Origin: a virus
Taxonomy: Duplodnaviria > Caudoviricetes
Virus record (IMG/VR): IMGVR_UViG_3300025098_000057
Coordinates: 1 to 54,767 of that record
Strand: one strand, 5' to 3'
DNA length: 54,767 nucleotides
The notes beneath the pieces were generated by a model. It had not been told where the DNA came from. It was given only the letters and a program-made list of their open reading frames with translations, and made no database searches. Of this stretch, positions 36,239-50,365 are shown piece after piece. The position numbers were made by a program, and so were the translations under genes. Position 1 is the stretch's first letter. Every line of letters starts with the position of its first letter.

Positions 36239-37420
36239 TTAGTCAGCTAAATAAGTCAGTTCGCATATATTACCTTTGCTTGGTGATTGTAATTCTAATT
36301 TACCAGATCTTCTATTACCAACATATTTTTTATGATAATGATAATAATCTGTCTTAGATAAACTGGGTAATGTCTTATGTATAAAACCTGCAGTCTCACT
36401 AGTTGTTATATACTCTATTTTTTTATTCTGATGAAAATGCCCTGTAAATAAAGTTCTATTTTTAGTACCACCCCACTCCTGAGCAAACTCCGTTGCATAA
36501 ACAATTGGTGTATTTTTACTTACAGCATCTCCATGCTCAAATGCATTAAAATTATCTTGCCAAACATGAACTTTTCTCTCTTCATATTTTACATCCCATG
36601 TTATTCTATCAGAATCTACAGCTTTAGACAAAGCATGTACTAAGTGAAATGATGATAATCTATCATGATTACCGGGTACATATACTACAGTTAAATGTTG
36701 AACATGTGTAACTATAAATGTAATAGCCCATATCATAGCATCAAATGCTTGAATATAAGCTTCTGTAGCTGTACTACAGTTGTCTAGAGGCGTTCCGCTA
36801 GTGGTTGTGCCATGAAATGTATCCATGTTAATTAAATCACCCCCTACAACAAAAAATAATTCTTCTATATTATGTGAAGCAATTGCTCTTTTTATAAGGT
36901 TCTTGACTGTATCCTCAAAATCCTTATCTATTGTTTCATTTCCTTCTTTACCAAAATGAATATCCTGAAGTGACATTATACCACATACAACATCTCTATC
37001 AGGATGTAACGCATAACCTTTAGGTGTAGATAGTTTTGGTATAGTATATTTTTTAGGTTTCCAAACATCTAATAATTCTTTTAAATAATCACTTTCTGTT
37101 TCTTTAATTTTAGTGATAAGTGCAGATACACGCCAATGATCAGCCATTTGTTTGTTCCAATACTGAGACAATTTCCATTTGCTTGTATCTATATTTAAAA
37201 GTTTTACTATCTCTTCTGCAGATTTAGGTTCGCTTTTAGATATCCCTGTTACTGTAGATTCTCCTTTATCTAAATTATAGTGTTGTTCAGATAAATCCAA
37301 CTTTCCTCTTACTAATTTTTTTAAGTGGCTATATTTTTTTGTGGATATACCCAATCTTTTAGCGCAATATGCATTACCCTTTTTCCACTTAAAGGATTCT
37401 TTTATCTTATCTAAATCCAT
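36239..37420 (-). CDS. Calcineurin-like metallophosphoesterase with a possible N-terminal HTH, 393 aa
   Basis: All five motifs are present in order: DIHFG, GGDL, GNHD, HGD, GHFH. The N-terminal NAYCAKRLGIS is HTH-like. Confidence 0.88.
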   Translation of the reverse strand: MDLDKIKESFKWKKGNAYCAKRLGISTKKYSHLKKLVRGKLDLSEQHYNLDKGESTVTGISKSEPKSAEEIVKLLNIDTSKWKLSQYWNKQMADHWRVSALITKIKETESDYLKELLDVWKPKKYTIPKLSTPKGYALHPDRDVVCGIMSLQDIHFGKEGNETIDKDFEDTVKNLIKRAIASHNIEELFFVVGGDLINMDTFHGTTTSGTPLDNCSTATEAYIQAFDAMIWAITFIVTHVQHLTVVYVPGNHDRLSSFHLVHALSKAVDSDRITWDVKYEERKVHVWQDNFNAFEHGDAVSKNTPIVYATEFAQEWGGTKNRTLFTGHFHQNKKIEYITTSETAGFIHKTLPSLSKTDYYHYHKKYVGNRRSGKLELQSPSKGNICELTYLAD

Positions 37421-37460
37421 TGTTTTTTTTTAAGTTGCTTAAATTTAGTAAATTATCTTG

Positions 37461-37490
37461 AAAAAAAGAAGCCCAGCAAAGCCGGGCTCC
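37461..37490 (-). terminator. Rho-independent terminator
   Basis: Minus strand reads GGAGCCCGGC-TTT-GCTGGGCTTC followed by T7, downstream of the Cys-rich fibre genes. Confidence 0.88.
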
Positions 37491-37500
37491 AGAACATACT

Positions 37501-37528
37501 ATGATTGAAAAACCAACAAAGCAATCAT
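37501..37528 (-). other. 3'-UTR hairpin with a loop antisense to translation-initiation leaders
   Basis: Perfect 7-bp stem ATGATTG/CAATCAT around a 14-nt loop; the minus-strand loop is CUUUGUUGGUUUUU. The structure is seen directly and the function is inferred. Confidence 0.5.
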
Positions 37529-37535
37529 TTCTGTT

Positions 37536-38087
37536 TTACAATAAGGTTCTAACTATTATTACAACGCTATCACAAGTAGCTGCTAAAGCATCTGTTGAAA
37601 CAAGTTTAATTTTATATTCTGTATCTGCAACTAAGCTTGTTACGGCTAATTGCAAAACTGTTGGTGCAACTATACCAACAGAAGTATATCCACTACCACT
37701 ATCAACTTGAACATCAATTTGAGTTGAAGCTGTAGACTCACCATTCCATACAACTGTAAATCCGCTATTAGTAATATTTGCAGCATAAACATTGTAAGGA
37801 GCATGATGAAGATCATCCGATGTACAAGCACCTAAACCTTGTGTCAATATCATAGAGAATTTTTGAAGTATTGAATCCAATCTATCACCTGTCTCAATTT
37901 TAATTACTGTGCCGGGAGCACCAACTTCAAAAGATGTACCACAATAACTAACACATTCTGCACATTGAATATCAGCACATCTTTCACTACCTACACTACA
38001 ATCTGTATAAGTACAAGGATTTGTTAAAGCTGTATCTTTACAACCGCAGTTTTTAGTTGGATTACATTTATCACAATTACATGCCAT
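37536..38087 (-). CDS. Cys-rich virion protein with a C-terminal FN3-like domain, 183 aa
   Basis: 11 Cys in the first 50 aa; APYNVYAANIT...TVVW...LVADTEYKIKL is an FN3-type pattern. Confidence 0.7.
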   Translation of the reverse strand: MACNCDKCNPTKNCGCKDTALTNPCTYTDCSVGSERCADIQCAECVSYCGTSFEVGAPGTVIKIETGDRLDSILQKFSMILTQGLGACTSDDLHHAPYNVYAANITNSGFTVVWNGESTASTQIDVQVDSGSGYTSVGIVAPTVLQLAVTSLVADTEYKIKLVSTDALAATCDSVVIIVRTLL

Positions 38088-38106
38088 TTTTTCTAATTTT
38101 TATTTA

Positions 38107-41100
38107 TTAAGGTGTGCAAGATCCACATACATCATAAGTGCTATCTAAATTTGTTCCTAATTCCGCAACTGAAGATTCGCAGTTACTAGTAATAGTAACA
38201 CATTTATTTGTTGTTGTTAACCAATCGGCTCTACCATCTCCTGGTATAAAGTCTGCCCCTGGGTTATTTAATTTAATTACGGTGCCATTTCCAATTGTAC
38301 CACATCCATGATTTGTAATTGAAACTACATAAGCATCACTAGTAGCACAATCAGTTACTATATATCTATCATTTGTAGGTATTGTACCTGCGGGGAATGT
38401 GTTATCATTTCCTTTAATTGCAGTATCCATTAGATAATCAAAATCTTCATTATCTCCTGAAGCCATTTCAGTTAAATATGTTATCGTATTATCTTGATCA
38501 AGTAAAGCAAAGTGTGAATTTATAGTAGAGACTTCAAACAATCCTGAAATTGTATTTCCACCTGGAGTTGTTGCTCCATCATATGGGTTTGAAGAACCAA
38601 TACCCTGTATTACTTGTCCAACATCAACAGCTGTCTGAATACCAAATTTAGATGGTGGAATCAATTGACCTGTTGTTGCAGCAATCATCTGTAATATATT
38701 TGCGGCATCTGCGCCAGAACTACCAGGAACAGTTAATGGGAAAAGTACAGTTGATATTCCTGCTGGATATTGAGATGATGTAAGACCTAAAGCTTGACCC
38801 CAAGAAGAATTCTGAGTTCCTGCTATAGCATCTCTATATGCATCATAATCATCTTTATATGAAGTGGATGGTTGGGTTACTGCACCTGCAAATCCTGCAG
38901 CTAATGTTGTATCATGATAAACACCATCTGAATCATTAGAAAAGACAAGCATAACAGCTTGATTCTTATATATACCCACTCCACCAGGAGTCCAAGATGT
39001 AGGTAAAACTTGAATACCTGAGTATGCACCATCTAATCCAGCACTTGCACCATTATCAACAATTGCCTTTTGATAACCAAGCCAATTTGAATTTGATGTA
39101 GGAATAATATATATCTCTCCTGTAAATCCAAATGCTGTATTCCATCTAGCTTTTAAGTCAACTAATGCATCTCTAACTTGTATTGCTTCACCAAGTGAAT
39201 ATGAATTTGTATTTATAAATGCAAAAATATCTTGATCAGTATATAACATCTTCATTCCAGCAGGAACTATTTGAATCTGAACTGTAACTGTAGCACTTGA
39301 ACAAACACCACCTACATCAGCTCTTATTTGAACTTGGAATGTATCACCATAGTTATCTGGAACTTTTTCAATAGTATTATATGTAAATACATTTTGTGAT
39401 GATGCTGATTGCGTAAGAGTTCCTCCTATAGGAGAAGTAATTATATTTATAATAGGATTACCATCTCCTAAAACATATGGTAATGTTATATTAGTTGTAT
39501 AACCATTTTCTTGACCTGCAAATACTCTAATTGTATCAGTTAATATAAACGCTGGACATTCACAACATAAAACAACTCTTTTAATACCGGTTGTTTGATC
39601 CCATCCTGCATATAAATATTGAGTTACACCTGTAGTAGCATTTACTACTTTACTAACATAAAACCAATATGATGTAGCAGGAGCTCCAGGAATAGCATAA
39701 GTTGAAGTACCACATGGTAAAAACTGTTGAGCTACTTGAACTCCAGCTGGACAGCTTCCAATAGCTAAGTCTGAATCAATACATTCACTTGGGCTTTGGA
39801 TTGTTGTAAATGAGTTAGTTGAAAAATCATATCTCCATTTTGTAGCTATACTTAGACCTGAACCACAATCTGTAATTGCTTGAACATATACAGATCCGCT
39901 AGTAATACCTGTAGCTAAAACTCTAGCACCGTCAACACCAACATCTGGAGTAGAATATGTAATATCATCTGTACTATATGAAAGTTCTATTGCTGTTTCA
40001 GCACCACTTCCCCATGCAGCTGTTAAAGAAAGATCTCCATTTACAGCCATAGATAATCCAGATAATATAGGAGAATAACAGAACCCTGCACCTCCTACAT
40101 TCGGTTCTAAAATTATATTATTTGTTCCAACATTATACGAGTATCTTGATGCAGTACCTGCAGCTAAATCACCAGTATAACCTAAGAATATATCATCTAC
40201 AGATGTTGTTGGGCTAATGGCAATATTTGATTCAACATTATTGCATGTAACTGCTAAAGCTGCAACTTCTTGTGTATCACAAATTTTTGTAACTCCACCT
40301 TGAGATACTGAAGTTACAACAGTATAAGATTGAGTTGAAAGTGCACCTGGAAATATTTGCTGCACATTTACAGGTGGATTTGTTATTGTAGCTGTTCCCA
40401 AAATATCACCTGGATTTCCTGTAACATATGCTTCAATATCATAAGTAACACCTTGACCTAAAGGATTTGTAAATCCAACTATTATCTGATTTGCTGTTGC
40501 ACTTACAGATACTGATGTTGGACATGGGATGCTTAAAGGAACTGAAATATTACTTGAGTCATTACATTGTGATGATCCATTTGAAACACAAGCATCAACT
40601 TGAACAACTAATGCTTGATATACATTTAATCCTGCTAATGAAATATTAATTCCAGAAGGTTGAGATGCTAATGAAGTTACACTTACAACTTCCGATATAG
40701 AGCTACCATTTGAATCAGTAATTGTTATTGTACTATTTTGCGTGCAATCAACATACCCTGTAGGAATAGTTGATGCAGAAAAATTAAGATTTATGGATTC
40801 AGGAATACCAGCTCCATTATTGATAATATTATATGCATAGTTGATAGTTACACCACTACATAGCTCATCACAACAATTATTTTGAATAGATGCAACAGCC
40901 GCATGTAAATCACAAATGGCAAGCCATTGATTTATATTTGATTCTGCTAGTGTTGTAGGAGTATCTACCCAACCTGTTACATTACCTAATGTACCATTGC
41001 CACTTAATTGAGGAGTTGATGCAAATAAACACTGAGCATTTATTGCTGAATTTAATAATGCAATATCACCAACTACATCTCTGAAACTACAAAATTGCGA

Positions 41101-41682: not shown

Positions 41683-41710
41683 AAATTTATTTTTTACACT
41701 CAGTATATAA

Positions 41711-41740
41711 TAATATACAATTTTTTTAATTATCTATCAA
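41711..41740 (-). promoter_or_regulatory. Candidate promoter (TTG-N20-TATATTAT) upstream of the 1191-aa gene
   Basis: TTGTATATTA at 41711-41720 and TTG at 41738-41740. Confidence 0.55.
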
Positions 41741-41982
41741 GCTTCTTCTGGTGGCACAGGTAACCCTGTTTCACAATCTATTATCTGTATTGTTAACCCT
41801 GTAGAAGGTGTTAAAACTTTATTTTCTAAATCTTGCCAATCACACAAGTATTTCTTCCTTATAATTGAATCATCGTCTGTAAGACAACAACTGCTTATAC
41901 CAAACTTCTTTGATCTAAAGTCTCTCCACATTGCATCTGCAAATTTGGTCTCAATCTGTATTTTTTTTACATCATCTGCCAT
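41737..41982 (-). CDS. Small Cys-containing hypothetical protein, probably structural
   Basis: The ORF track gives 41737..42003; the ATG at 41982 (MADDVKK) gives a smaller 11-nt overlap with the upstream gene. Contains FGISSCC. Confidence 0.6.
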   Translation of the reverse strand: MADDVKKIQIETKFADAMWRDFRSKKFGISSCCLTDDDSIIRKKYLCDWQDLENKVLTPSTGLTIQIIDCETGLPVPPEEA

Positions 41983-42154
41983 TGACAATATTGTTTCGGG
42001 CATTATTTAATTTTTTTGTTAAAGGATCTGAATTGCTTGCCCCTATCTTATTATTATAAGTTGTTAAGCAAGTTTTATGGACAATTGATCCATCTTTAGC
42101 TTTTGCCTTTTGACAACCGCAACTAAATCCTTTACTACATTCTTTGCACGCCAT
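41972..42154 (-). CDS. Small Cys/His-rich, possibly zinc-binding protein, 60 aa
   Basis: CKEC...CGC...HKTC pattern; preceded by an AAAAACCAACAAAA leader; fills the gap between genes. Confidence 0.7.
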   Translation of the reverse strand: MACKECSKGFSCGCQKAKAKDGSIVHKTCLTTYNNKIGASNSDPLTKKLNNARNNIVNGR

Positions 42155-42174
42155 TTTTGTTGGTTTTTACTGGT

Positions 42175-42726: not shown

Positions 42727-42753
42727 TTATAAAATTATTAGAGTATATATTAA

Positions 42754-42763
42754 TAATATACAA
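42754..42763 (-). promoter_or_regulatory. Repeated promoter-like motif TTGTATATTA
   Basis: Exact copy, just downstream of a terminator and 27 nt upstream of the ATG at 42726. Confidence 0.55.
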
Positions 42764-42776
42764 AAAAAGTTTAACT

Positions 42777-44056: not shown

Positions 44057-44107
44057 AATTTGTTGTTTAAAATATAAATAAAAAATGTGTAACGTTGTGT
44101 TACATTA

Positions 44108-44137
44108 TAATATACAAAATTTTTAATTAACTACAAA
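44108..44137 (-). promoter_or_regulatory. Candidate promoter (TTTG-N19-TATATTAT)
   Basis: TTGTATATTA at 44108-44117 and TTTG at 44134-44137. Confidence 0.6.
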
Positions 44138-44852: not shown

Positions 44853-45866
44853 TTATTTCCAATAAGGTTCAACTTTATCCATTAATGATTTTAATAAATC
44901 ATCATGTTCCGGGTTCTTTAAGAATGTAACAACTTCTGCGGGAACTTTACCTAGTTTAACTCCGCTATCTAAAGTTTCAATCCATCCTGATGGTTTTGGT
45001 GTAATAAATCTATAAAACATAGAATCTTTTACTAATGCTCTAATTTTAAGATCTTCCATCTTAGATTTAGAGGCATTTAAAAAGCTTTCAGCAGCTCTCA
45101 TTCTGTTAGATTCAGTTCCTTCACCAGAAATAAACATATCCATATTTTCATATATAATATCTTTTGGTGTAGATTTAGTATACTGAACACTATCTGCATC
45201 TACAACTTTTGCTACATACATTAATTTGCTTAAGTTTTTATCAAACATTTTTTCAAGCTCAACTAACGCTCTGTTGCGCATTTTTGTATACTCAGTTCTT
45301 GTAGAAATTGTTTCTTCTAACTGATCTAAATAAAACTTCTTTGGATTTGGTGAAGTCTTTGCTTCCTTTAATGATTTAGATATCATAGAAAATCCACCTG
45401 CTTCAATTGCACATAGCTTAATTCTATCATAAGGATCTTTTGCGGGATCAAGATAAACAGGATCATTTCCACAGCGCATGCTTATTCTTGACCAGAACTT
45501 ATCATTATCTGGCTTAAGTAATGTTACTTTATTCCAAAACTCTTTGTCTTCAGGATCAATCATATTAGAAGCAAGCTCTCTCTCTAATTCAGAAACAATT
45601 CTTCTAATTTCTTTAATTTTTAACTCTCTATCGCCAGGAGCTAAACGTTTTACTTCTGGTGCAAATTCATTAAGTCCTGTTATAAATCTTTTTACTCCGT
45701 TTAATTCTAAACAAGCTAGGTTTTCTTCATGCCATACACCTTCGTGTAATGCCATACCATAATGCTCTAATCCCATATTTTGTCTGTCTTGATTAAAATA
45801 AGGGCGTACAGCAATTGTTTGGTTTTTTCCTTGCTGATACTTTTCTACAATTGTGTATTCTTCCAT
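44853..45866 (-). CDS. Conserved crAss-like protein downstream of the major capsid gene, 337 aa
   Basis: Long ORF in the conserved block between the capsid and ring genes; AAAAACCAAAAAACAA leader; function not recognisable. Confidence 0.65.
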   Translation of the reverse strand: MEEYTIVEKYQQGKNQTIAVRPYFNQDRQNMGLEHYGMALHEGVWHEENLACLELNGVKRFITGLNEFAPEVKRLAPGDRELKIKEIRRIVSELERELASNMIDPEDKEFWNKVTLLKPDNDKFWSRISMRCGNDPVYLDPAKDPYDRIKLCAIEAGGFSMISKSLKEAKTSPNPKKFYLDQLEETISTRTEYTKMRNRALVELEKMFDKNLSKLMYVAKVVDADSVQYTKSTPKDIIYENMDMFISGEGTESNRMRAAESFLNASKSKMEDLKIRALVKDSMFYRFITPKPSGWIETLDSGVKLGKVPAEVVTFLKNPEHDDLLKSLMDKVEPYWK

Positions 45867-45897
45867 TTGTTTTTTGGTTTTTGTAAATTATTAATTG

Positions 45898-45981
45898 TTA
45901 CTCAAAAGTACATAATTATGTACACTTATTAATTAATATTTCTAATGCCGGTAATTAAACCGGCAATAGTTATTTGAGTAA
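45898..45981 (-). ncRNA. Putative structured intergenic RNA (four-way junction)
   Basis: A 9-bp closing stem TTACTCAAA/TTTGAGTAA encloses three inverted repeats. It is not a canonical tRNA. Confidence 0.4.
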
Positions 45982-46641
45982 TTATAAATCTTCGTACTTC
46001 TTATCTGTCTTTTGAACAGGTGAAGCCATTTTTTTATCTGCGCCAAACCTAGATTCTAAAAGTCTATCTCCATATGTAAAAGTCTTAGAGAATTTAGTTT
46101 CAAGAGCCTGTTTAAGCCCTTTCACTTTTACAATTCTTCTATCTAACTCTTGCTGAACCTTTTTGTCCACCGTCTCATCCTCTCTAAAAAGTCTGATGCT
46201 AAAAGATATTTTGTATAACTCCACAAAATTTTTATAATATTTGGGAGATTCTACTTTTTTATCTTCTGTTATCTCTTCACATCTTTTCTTTGCCACATCT
46301 TCAGTAATTTCAGCTGCTGCTCTTACATCGTCTGTGAACGCTGCATTTAATCTTACAGCCTTTGCTTGTTCTTCTCTTACTTTATATTCTTCACAGTTAA
46401 ACTCTTTTAACCTACCAAGTGAAGTATCTGCAACATTCTGAGTAATATATTTCTTATCAAGTGCTTCTGTTACCGAAACTTTCTCACCAGCTATTGTAAC
46501 ACCTGCTTCTTGTGGAGCTTTGTAAGGTGATTCTACATAAGCTCTTTTATCAAACGTTACCCCAGCTGTTGCATTAAAAGATAATGCCTGAACTCTGTCA
46601 TCTCTAAGCGCTGCTTCTTTTGCGTATATTTCTTCTGCCAT
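45982..46641 (-). CDS. Hypothetical protein, 219 aa, charged and helical
   Basis: ATG start and tight packing with neighbouring genes; no recognisable motif. Confidence 0.7.
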   Translation of the reverse strand: MAEEIYAKEAALRDDRVQALSFNATAGVTFDKRAYVESPYKAPQEAGVTIAGEKVSVTEALDKKYITQNVADTSLGRLKEFNCEEYKVREEQAKAVRLNAAFTDDVRAAAEITEDVAKKRCEEITEDKKVESPKYYKNFVELYKISFSIRLFREDETVDKKVQQELDRRIVKVKGLKQALETKFSKTFTYGDRLLESRFGADKKMASPVQKTDKKYEDL

Positions 46642-46652
46642 GATTTCTATTT

Positions 46653-47297
46653 TTAAACAATTGTTGGTACTACCCCTTCATAACAAAGGAATTCAAAATT
46701 TGCTATTACTGTTCCTGTAGCATTTGCACCTGGACCACTTTGATTTGCAACTACAGATAAAGTAAAGTCTACCTGTGCGCCAGTCGTACTTTCAAGTATT
46801 GCCATTGAATCAGTTGCTAAACCATTACCTGTAAGGCTGTCCTGAAGTTCAGCTCCATTTTGTAATACATTAATTACATTTGAACTTAAACTAATATCGG
46901 TACATACTACAACACCTTTCATTTCCCAAGGTAGGTAATAACCTTCATTACCTTCTCCCGGAACTTCTGGAATATTAACTGAAACTAACTCAGTAAGTTC
47001 ATTAGAGGTTGCTTGAAGCGCTCCTATGATAGTTAACTTCCAACCTTCTTGTACAGTACCATTGCTAAATGTAATTCTTGTTGCTGTTTTTTGCAAAACG
47101 CTAGACGGTAGAGCTGCCGTAGATGATTCAAATTGGTCAGAAACCAACTGCAAACCTACCTCCGCTGCTTGTCCCACAGCATTAACATGAGATAGCCTAG
47201 CTACTTGAATTGTACTATCTCCTTTCTTTCCAGCTCGTATATCTTTTTTAATATACTTATCTGGGAAGAGTGCTTTTATTCTTTCTATAAATGCCAT
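46653..47297 (-). CDS. Putative head fibre/decoration protein, 214 aa
   Basis: Directly after the MCP terminator; short basic N-terminus (…VARLSHVN) followed by a beta-rich domain. The function is inferred. Confidence 0.45.
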   Translation of the reverse strand: MAFIERIKALFPDKYIKKDIRAGKKGDSTIQVARLSHVNAVGQAAEVGLQLVSDQFESSTAALPSSVLQKTATRITFSNGTVQEGWKLTIIGALQATSNELTELVSVNIPEVPGEGNEGYYLPWEMKGVVVCTDISLSSNVINVLQNGAELQDSLTGNGLATDSMAILESTTGAQVDFTLSVVANQSGPGANATGTVIANFEFLCYEGVVPTIV

Positions 47298-49025: not shown

Positions 49026-50315
49026 TTACATCCGTTTAAAAATATTATTAGCTCTTTGAATCTTTCTCTTTGGCTTACTAGATCTTTCCTTTTGATCTAC
49101 ACCTAGAGAATTACCACCACTATTAGATTGCTCAGTCTTCAGCTTTCTTACTGTATCAGCTACAGTTTTTTGAGCTCCTTTCTCCATGATTTTTGATTTA
49201 TATCCGTTAGGATCTGATAATAACCATAATGCTTCAGTTATTAAATCATAGTTAGGTTCTACAAACTGGTACTTTTCTAATAGGTGACCTAATAAATTTG
49301 TGTTATTTCCATTAACTGATGGGTATGCTGGTTGAACAAGTCCATTGAACAGCATTGATTGAGTTTTCTTATCTACTTTAAGATCTCCTACTGTACCACC
49401 TTTTAATGTTTCATATACATTTGACATGTATTCTTTAGATGCTTTTTCTTGCTGCTTCTTTTTTAGCTCTTGTTCTTGTAGTTTTTGAGCAACAATTTTC
49501 TCTTGCATCTTATCTAATTTTGGTTTAAACTTAGAAGCTTGCTGTTGAAGCTTACCTAAGTCTTTCCAAATTTCAATTTCATCAGCTATTTCTTCTTGAG
49601 TTCCGTACCCAGTTGCTGATAAATATTCTGTTATAATTTTTTCTTGGTCCTTTTCTTTATCTAAAGAAAGTTCTTTTGATTCTTCTACATGAGAAAGAGT
49701 TTTAAATAAACCCTTTAAATCTTGACCACCATCTGCAACATATCTTGCTGCAACTTTTAATTCTGGAGGAAGCGCATCAAAGAATTTTTTAGGTGTTTCT
49801 CTTCTAACTTCATTAGCTTTTTCTTCTAAATTAGCTTGAATTAATTCTTCCCAATCTTTAGCAGAATATTCTTCTAAAGGCTTATCATCATCAAAAGGGA
49901 CTATCTTATCATCTTTAATAAGTTTAGAAAATACATCACTAATGCCGCTAATCTTTTTTCTACCTCTCGTTTCAGTAGATGTAGTTTCATTTGAAGATTC
50001 TAATTCATCATTTTCAGAAGCTAAGTCATCAATAATTGAAGCTACATCTTCAGAACTAGCTTCAGCAACAGGCGCTTCCTCTGGAGCAGCTTCAGCAGCA
50101 GGTGCTTCTGCAGCTTCCGTAGTTTCTTCAACAACTGGTTTTTTAACAGGAGTATCAAAACTCATATCTGGTGTTGCACTAGAAAGGTCTGAAAAAATGT
50201 TTTTTGGTTTAGATGACTCATCTGCAATAACAACATTATCCGCACCCGCTGGAAAAATTTCCTCTAAGTTTACTTCTTCTGTTGTTACGTTTGTATTCAT
50301 TGTATTATCACTCAT
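49026..50315 (-). CDS. Putative capsid scaffolding protein, 429 aa
   Basis: Acidic disordered N-terminus, coiled coils and a basic C-tail, immediately upstream of the MCP. Confidence 0.7.
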   Translation of the reverse strand: MSDNTMNTNVTTEEVNLEEIFPAGADNVVIADESSKPKNIFSDLSSATPDMSFDTPVKKPVVEETTEAAEAPAAEAAPEEAPVAEASSEDVASIIDDLASENDELESSNETTSTETRGRKKISGISDVFSKLIKDDKIVPFDDDKPLEEYSAKDWEELIQANLEEKANEVRRETPKKFFDALPPELKVAARYVADGGQDLKGLFKTLSHVEESKELSLDKEKDQEKIITEYLSATGYGTQEEIADEIEIWKDLGKLQQQASKFKPKLDKMQEKIVAQKLQEQELKKKQQEKASKEYMSNVYETLKGGTVGDLKVDKKTQSMLFNGLVQPAYPSVNGNNTNLLGHLLEKYQFVEPNYDLITEALWLLSDPNGYKSKIMEKGAQKTVADTVRKLKTEQSNSGGNSLGVDQKERSSKPKRKIQRANNIFKRM

Positions 50316-50355
50316 TTTTTGTTGGTTTTAAGAATGTTTATAATCTATACATATA

Positions 50356-50365
50356 TAATATACAT
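50356..50365 (-). promoter_or_regulatory. Variant promoter-like motif (ATGTATATTA) upstream of the scaffold/MCP genes
   Basis: One mismatch to TTGTATATTA, in the 146-nt intergenic gap. Confidence 0.45.

Follow-up and report, generated by a model that had tools for sequence, protein, structure and literature searches.

What does a small hairpin do when it lies between the stop codon of a virion-type gene and that gene's terminator, and when its loop reads as the antisense of the leaders of three other genes of the same phage? The locus that raises this question is an element at positions 37461-37535 of the IMG/VR virus record IMGVR_UViG_3300025098_000057, the whole of which (54,767 nucleotides (nt), or 54.8 kb, estimated to be 47% complete) was analyzed and is here called the window. 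The original prediction, made from the letters of this DNA, had proposed that the minus-strand transcript carries a hairpin, a 10-nt spacer and a strong terminator after the stop, and that the loop might form part of an antisense RNA tuning the translation of genes with a matching leader. Each part of that layout was found where it had been placed. Comparison with relatives moreover indicates that the hairpin is genuine as an RNA structure, conserved and specific to one strand, and that it stands at the 3' end of the upstream gene's mRNA. We lean towards the view that it serves as a 3'-end antisense regulator, acting by RNA-RNA pairing on the translation of virion genes that bear a short leader box.

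A conserved hairpin between stop codon and terminator

In the window, the element and the terminator both lie between the stop codon of a 183-amino-acid (aa) open reading frame (ORF) and position 37461, which places them in the 3' untranslated region (3' UTR) of this parent gene (Table 1). The terminator is of the intrinsic (Rho-independent) type, a G+C-rich stem-loop followed by seven T, and in the relatives displayed a G+C-rich hairpin with a T-run likewise stands 3' of the element.

Viral contigs supplied 21 loci with homologs of the 183-aa protein, then 63 by profile; metagenomes supplied the best 80 of 199 relatives, and genome bins 4. Once exact-duplicate element segments were removed, the first three of these scans (164 loci) yielded 83 representatives, which together with the window gave the 84 distinct copies used to build a covariance model. 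Eleven of the 16 loci missed by a simple pattern, being neither representatives nor duplicates, were then added, for a total of 95 sources. The hairpin had been expected to persist in close relatives, and 92 of the 95 sources match the model at E <= 0.001; of the rest, the element can be recognized by eye in L195, and L217 and L218 break off within the gene. All 11 genomes examined (1.0 Mb) carry exactly one element, at E <= 5.1e-10 with the next best match at E 0.12. Conservation extends over protein identities of 34-72%, and a 120-kb contig whose protein is 34% identical combines an identical loop with a different stem.

Covariation of the stem alongside conservation of the loop, a pattern that had been put forward as a check on the hairpin, is borne out by these copies. 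In a plain, structure-free MAFFT alignment of the 84 distinct copies, helix P1 is 90.7% paired and 8/8 of its pairs change on both sides, and 0/500 shuffles reached its covariation score; in the model-fitted alignment the score was 0.400, with shuffles at 0.256 and slid partners at no more than 0.162. The loop reads exactly UUUGUUGGUUUU in 69 of 92 aligned elements, the others being off by one to a few letters. G-U combinations make up 98 of the 637 cells of the seven core pairs. Read from the plus strand they would become A-C mismatches, and the structure therefore belongs to the gene's sense strand, i.e. to RNA. P1 falls within the minimum-energy fold of 84 of the 92 copies, and the loop core is predicted to be accessible, with a mean unpaired probability of 0.83.

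Outside P1, a 4-bp outer helix (P0; CAAC with GUUG in relatives) is tentative and weakly supported. It is 76% paired in relatives with little covariation, its AAC and GUU parts are both present in 80, both absent in 6 and discordant in 6 of the 92 elements, and one relative (L113) has CAAU with AUUG, changed on both sides. When the stem is enforced, the fold of the window copy includes P0 as well. A search of the whole window against Rfam 15 at gathering thresholds, covering families such as c4 antisense RNA, GcvB and Flavo-1, gave no match; for positions 37380-37620 at E up to 10, the best scores were at most 20 bits vs thresholds of 40-111, i.e. at chance level.

A leader box that mirrors the loop

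The word AAAAACCAACAAA occurs four times in the window at no more than one mismatch vs 0.36 occurrences expected, and none of 100 shuffles contained four. Its copy at 37508-37520, the complement of the loop, is the only one on the plus strand, as had been suspected. The three minus-strand copies stop 1-3 nt short of the ATGs of the 60-aa, 337-aa and 429-aa ORFs, so that the complementarity noticed between the loop and these leaders holds with 0, 1 and 1 mismatches over 13 nt, respectively.

A wider view was obtained from 891 genes called in the 11 genomes (ATG starts only, longest ORF, at least 50 aa). AAACCAA heads the 7-mers enriched in the 35 nt before starts (61 observed vs 6.1 expected) and is found in 11/11 genomes, and the next enriched words, TAAAACC, AAAACCA and TTAAAAC, overlap it. 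Leader copies are spaced like a ribosome-binding site, 43 of 63 ending 3-8 nt ahead of the ATG, and the following base is A in 25, C in 17 and T in 11. The longer motif AAAACCAACAAA is matched at 11 or more of 12 positions in 19 of the 891 leaders vs none with the motif reversed. A scan of leaders, suggested at the outset, thus finds the box conserved before all three gene families named there: the ~425-aa family (11/11 genomes), the ~338-aa family (11/11) and the Cys-rich 40-62-aa family (10/11). Further carriers of the box are genes of ~98 aa (5 genomes), ~90 aa (4 genomes) and ~170 aa (3 genomes). The leaders of the window are A-rich and without a Shine-Dalgarno sequence, and genome G+C is 31-36%. 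Since the box of the Cys gene sits ~7 nt past the stop of the preceding gene, inside an operon, the box is tied to start codons and not to promoters. In a distant genome, G013, AAACCAA was observed 6 times vs 0.56 expected, with boxes before the 425- and 338-type genes.

Significance of the complementarity against an A/T-rich background had been named as a decisive point, and it was upheld. Duplexes of -10 kcal/mol or lower with the standard loop were predicted at 27 of 891 start regions vs 5.9 +/- 4.4 for 200 permutations of the loop. A single permutation reached 27, and that one retains the GUUGGUU core; in-gene control windows reached the same energy in 6 of 534 cases. Complementarity at conserved start regions is thus beyond chance, as seen in the permutation test, the identity of the top 7-mer and the three families boxed in 10-11 of 11 genomes. 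Within the window, the strongest predicted duplexes are those of the Cys gene (-14.3 kcal/mol) and the 429-aa gene (-13.7 kcal/mol), followed by an upstream site of the 219-aa gene (-9.9 kcal/mol), the 337-aa leader discussed below and the 924-aa gene (-8.4 kcal/mol), with the others at -1.1 to -6.9 kcal/mol. The site of the 219-aa gene is a ACCAACAA word on the minus strand at 46661-46668, ~20 nt upstream of the start at 46641.

A proposed antisense control of virion genes

We propose a structured RNA, present in single copy and placed at the mRNA 3' end of a virion gene whose 183-aa product carries a fibronectin type III (FN3) domain. Its parts would be a covarying 7-8 bp helix, perhaps extended by the 4-bp outer helix, an exposed U/G-rich loop of 12-14 nt and, after a short spacer, the intrinsic terminator. 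Either whole or as a processed fragment, the late FN3-gene transcript would expose the U/G-rich seed at its 3' end, and the seed most likely pairs with the AAACCAA(C) box 3-8 nt before the starts of the ~425-aa gene, the ~338-aa gene and the gene for the small Cys-rich protein, as well as a few further genes that bear the box in some genomes. Because the box sits where a ribosome-binding site would be, in leaders without Shine-Dalgarno sequences, pairing there would most likely block 30S loading and hence repress translation. Output of the target genes would in this way be tied to the amount of late transcript ending at the terminator. We infer from sequence that pairing takes place in the cell, that it represses and that the element works in trans.

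The surroundings of the element bear on how such an RNA might arise. The motif TAnnTTTG, which we take to be the Bacteroidota-type -7 promoter consensus, was found in the 150 nt upstream of just 4 of 91 copies of the element. In the 80 nt downstream, 82 of 91 relatives have a TAnnTTT[GA] box. Scarcity of the upstream box argues against an internal promoter of host type and would leave processing possible. A promoter box that is rare upstream and common downstream fits a 3'-UTR element using its parent's terminator. In the window, the TAAATTTA box downstream marks the end of the element-bearing transcription unit.

Of the antisense idea in the original prediction, then, the structure, the strand, the conserved loop and box, and the complementarity all stood, whereas variants of the loop were not consistently matched by the boxes.

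Weighing the proposal against its alternatives

Several observations weigh against the antisense proposal. The transcript of the element, its RNA end and its level are all unseen. A search for sequencing runs recorded as RNA and containing the stretch found none. Among three runs compared as contigs, one, presumed to be RNA, includes a relative 95-99% identical over 37425-38018 with stem and loop unchanged, and such contigs carry no information on ends, strand or level. The 7-bp, A/U-rich stem of the window is marginal (-2.8 kcal/mol on its own), and in a free fold of 84-86 nt an alternative pairing reaches -24.8 kcal/mol vs -23.2 kcal/mol with the stem enforced, so that the evidence for the stem has to come from the relatives. 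A 12-13 bp duplex is impossible in a closed 14-nt loop unless the stem opens. In the window, the 337-aa leader pairs moderately with the loop (-8.7 kcal/mol) and the capsid gene itself is without a box. Gene calling was crude, with ATG starts, longest ORFs and the 50-aa minimum described above. The sole outgroup tested, Cellulophaga phage phi17:2, gave no match to the covariance model (best E 1.86), with AAACCAA observed 2 times vs 0.75 expected and related words mildly enriched (AAAACCA, 5 observed vs 0.92 expected). Moreover, the box could be conserved for another reason, e.g. as a translation enhancer, in which case only the match of the loop would need explaining.

Compensation between loop and box was sought in five genomes whose loops vary, and no consistent pattern emerged. 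In summed duplex energy, each genome's own loop and the standard loop came out about equal, at -90.5/-98.6, -101.4/-100.7, -219.9/-219.2, -58.9/-60.3 and -103.1/-100.6 kcal/mol, respectively. The own loop was favored at single leaders only, namely in the 425-aa family of G001 and G002 and in the Cys-gene region of G003, and the leaders of G011 (loop ...GGUAUAU) and G012 (UUCGUUGG...) retain AAACCAACAA. Upstream of the 60-aa Cys gene in G003 (L031), the variant loop UUUGUUGGUUAC pairs with a second box, GUAACCAAUAAA, over 12 pairs including one G-U; this second box overlaps the preceding stop codon, and the match, a single case, may be a coincidence.

The absence of consistent compensation is what would be expected if the hairpin were a 3'-end element for protein binding, stabilization or help with termination, its U/G-rich loop being read by a phage or host RNA-binding protein or acting as a nuclease barrier, and AAACCAA being an unrelated translation signal with no pairing between the two. 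We consider this explanation possible, though rather unlikely. It would account for a loop stricter than the boxes (69/92 identical vs A/C/T at 25/17/11 in the base after AAACCAA), for the constant position of the element ~10 nt ahead of a terminator and for a possible outer helix which, with its purine-rich internal loop, resembles a folded domain. A seed with many targets would, however, also be expected to be more conserved than any single target, and protein binding leaves unexplained why the sole conserved structured element found mirrors the top leader 7-mer exactly and why just one of 200 loop permutations fits the leaders equally well. Pairing might alternatively act positively, the loop tethering, opening or protecting leaders from nucleases so that box-bearing mRNAs are translated or stabilized as late transcripts accumulate. 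The complementarity and conservation serve this version as well as they serve repression, and the Shine-Dalgarno-like spacing of the box in leaders lacking that sequence is in its favor. Against it, the A-rich leaders, judged by their sequence, offer no obvious inhibitory structure to open, and initiation is normally blocked when the stretch 3-16 nt ahead of a start codon is covered; we judge positive control improbable.

A further thought, which we regard as a long shot, is that AAACCAA is a phage-private ribosome-loading tag and the hairpin RNA its trans-acting reader, an anti-Shine-Dalgarno stand-in or an adaptor that brings or times mRNAs at the ribosome. If so, crAss-like lineages might carry different loop/box pairs as private translation codes; UUGUG/CACACAAC may be such a pair in another lineage. 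Presence of the 12-13 nt word in both orientations would also suit a double-stranded DNA site, e.g. a regulator binding site usable either way round. Such a site would need no covarying flanking stem and would not tolerate 98 G-U cells that are A-C on the other strand, and the boxes hold a fixed distance to start codons even inside an operon, which makes this explanation very improbable. Scarcely credible is a chance match, or a plus-strand role such as the decoy also entertained by the original prediction or the leader of a plus-strand ORF. The low G+C and A-rich leaders would favor chance, and a 69-aa ORF does begin at 37501 on the plus strand (37501-37710), but the excess of matches, the permutation test and conservation across such divergent proteins speak for the real loop. 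The G-U pairs fit the minus strand only, and all called genes around the element are on that strand, so the decoy is not supported. The plus-strand ORF was rejected because its ATG falls within the covarying stem and is not kept in relatives.

Comparison with known RNA regulators

Base-pairing small RNAs (sRNAs) of the CpxQ, SroC and DapZ type are derived from bacterial 3' UTRs and use the terminator of the parent mRNA. The element shares with them its place between stop codon and parental terminator, its conserved seed and the rarity of an upstream promoter box (4/91). It differs in being phage-encoded and in that it may act within the full-length mRNA. Further 3'-UTR-derived sRNAs have been catalogued in Bacteroides thetaiotaomicron (PMC7366714).

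Functional analogies are to trans-acting regulators of bacteria. As described in PMC5900567, a G/U-rich seed of GcvB silences C/A-rich leader elements, and the C/A-rich element is thought to enhance translation. Like GcvB of enterobacteria and Pasteurella with its R1 seed, the element has a conserved single-stranded U/G-rich seed that is complementary to a short A/C-rich consensus at or upstream of many ribosome-binding regions (PMC5900567). In contrast to GcvB (RF00022), of which it is not a member, it shows neither sequence nor structural homology and no Rfam match; its seed lies in a hairpin loop and not in an R1/R2 linker, the RNA is phage-encoded and placed in a 3' UTR, and the proposed targets are the phage's own virion genes. 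GibS of B. thetaiotaomicron, according to PMC7366714, acts in trans, pairs with translation initiation regions and represses, without a known chaperone. The present element resembles it in the proposed pairing with target start regions in a presumed Bacteroidota cell, but GibS, as characterized in that source, is a host sRNA from an intergenic region, with a long, unstructured seed at its 5' end and metabolic targets, and the two are not homologous. By analogy, the element would thus work like GcvB and GibS, and is a member of neither family.

Among phages, a conserved 5'-UTR sRNA before a tail gene has been described in phiKZ-like giant phages, together with conserved phage sRNAs listed there without known function (PMC11512511). 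The element is like these and like the c4 antisense RNA of P1/P7 in being a small structured RNA whose position by virion genes is conserved. The other phage sRNAs have no predicted targets, or target host genes or one phage operon, whereas here a multi-gene set of leaders with a common box is predicted. Our literature search, with supplementary files outside its reach, found no paper on RNA regulators in crAss-like phages, whose post-transcriptional control appears to have received little study, and no paper containing these motif strings in connection with phages.

Genomic setting, parent gene and targets

The window is an uncultured aquatic crAss-like phage. It encodes hallmark proteins of this group, with Pfam matches above cut-offs to CrAss_Ring_2 (223-aa protein, E 1.6e-17) and CrAss_Ring_1 (301-aa protein, E 2e-8), as well as a major head protein (PHROG match, E 8.9e-30) and a giant open frame exceeding 5249 aa. 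Its large ORFs, and all called genes near the element, are on the minus strand. The DNA of 36800-38300 had no match among 50,697 phage records, and the capsid protein is 24-28% identical to those of the nearest cultured phages.

In the 183-aa parent protein, a Cys-rich N-terminal half, in which 12 cysteines are invariant, precedes an FN3-like C-terminal domain, for which a profile of 16 homologs gave a fibronectin type III match at residues ~96-181 (E down to 3.7e-9). The protein resembles a decoration or fiber module exposed at the surface and is not clearly a 'major tail protein', the match to that PHROG being weak (E 1e-4). Downstream of the element lies a gene for a 393-aa metallophosphoesterase/exonuclease-like protein.

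The four bin contigs with the parent gene are labeled Campylobacteraceae, Pseudomonadales, Flavobacteriales and Rickettsiales; these labels are unrelated, and the host therefore cannot be read from them. The contigs (loci L233-L236) are whole ~115-120-kb contigs of related phages, and their placement in the four discordant bins is probably a binning artifact, unsuitable for host assignment. The L233 protein is 98% identical to the 183-aa protein of the window. Leaders without Shine-Dalgarno sequences, together with TAnnTTT[GA] boxes, would fit a Bacteroidota host.

As for the proposed targets, the 429-aa protein is scaffold-like by position only. It had no match in Pfam, PHROG or PDB, and a protein atlas gave a weak lead (0.82) to scaffolding proteins. 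The 337-aa protein likewise had no family match in Pfam, PHROG or PDB, and the atlas returned 'hypothetical protein' clusters alone. Homologs of the 60-aa protein, 40-62 aa long and with a common N-terminal Cys pattern, occur in 10 of 11 genomes. Within the 429-aa gene, an in-frame internal ATG at 49508, with AAACCAA 11 nt upstream, would give a nested C-terminal product of 160 aa (49026-49508, minus strand). This arrangement, with nested products of 160-162 aa, is seen in 5 of 11 genomes, and the internal ATG could be a nested start as in scaffold genes or a part of conserved coding sequence (KFKPKLDKM). Among other boxed genes, one of ~88-94 aa whose product begins MKIIPLGKKVLIK has AAACCAA in 4 of 11 genomes (G001, G002, G004 and G010; L026, L028, L037 and L071), the product resembling a GroES-type co-chaperonin by eye only. 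Palindrome-like words (TGTATATTAT..., GTACATAATTATGTAC) also lie upstream of several virion genes, recur before the orthologs of relatives and may be late promoters or operators.

Table 1. Features of the element, its parent gene, the leader boxes and the proposed target genes in the window
Feature	Position	Strand	Basis
TAA stop of the 183-aa ORF	37538-37536	-	sequence
Parent gene, 183-aa virion-type protein; the element is its 3' UTR	37536..38087	-	ORF
Outer helix P0, 5' arm, tentative; AACA here, CAAC/UAAC in most relatives	37532..37535	-	stem-enforced fold
Helix P1, 5' arm AUGAUUG (DNA ATGATTG)	37522..37528	-	sequence; covariation in relatives
14-nt loop CUUUGUUGGUUUUU (DNA CTTTGTTGGTTTTT), core UUUGUUGGUUUU near-invariant; proposed seed	37508..37521	-	sequence and 92 aligned elements
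Helix P1, 3' arm CAAUCAU (DNA CAATCAT)	37501..37507	-	sequence; covariation in relatives
10-nt spacer	37500-37491	-	sequence
Outer helix P0, 3' arm, tentative, within spacer; UGUU here, GUUG in most relatives	37493..37496	-	
Intrinsic terminator: stem-loop 37490-37468 (10 pairs, 7 G-C, loop of 3) and U-run 37467-37461	37461..37490	-	terminator scan
TAAATTTA box, 20 nt 5' of the next gene's ATG; possible Bacteroidota-type -7 promoter box	37440..37447	-	sequence
Leader box AAAAACCAACAAA (0 mismatches), 1 nt before ATG of the 60-aa Cys-rich ORF	42156..42168	-	family boxed in 10/11 genomes
Leader box AAAAACCAAAAAA (1 mismatch to AAAAACCAACAAA), 3 nt before ATG of the 337-aa gene	45870..45882	-	family boxed in 11/11 genomes
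Leader box UAAAACCAACAAA (1 mismatch to AAAAACCAACAAA), 2 nt before ATG of the 429-aa gene	50318..50330	-	family boxed in 11/11 genomes
60-aa Cys-rich target	41972..42154	-	ORF
337-aa target	44853..45866	-	ORF
429-aa target, adjoining the major capsid protein gene on its upstream side	49026..50315	-	ORF
Palindrome-like words, approximate	50340-50365, 45905-45925, 44100-44120, 42745-42765, 41700-41720	-	

Implications for crAss-like phages

The locus supplies a concrete candidate for RNA-based control, with one hairpin per examined relative and a predicted regulon of virion genes marked by a common box. If the pairing is true, it would reveal how the relative output of capsid-assembly genes is set in a phage without an apparent Shine-Dalgarno signal. 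The hairpin and its leader box would, in that case, also provide an RNA family and a motif for annotating abundant uncultured phages, as well as a small, portable translational switch for Bacteroidota genetics.

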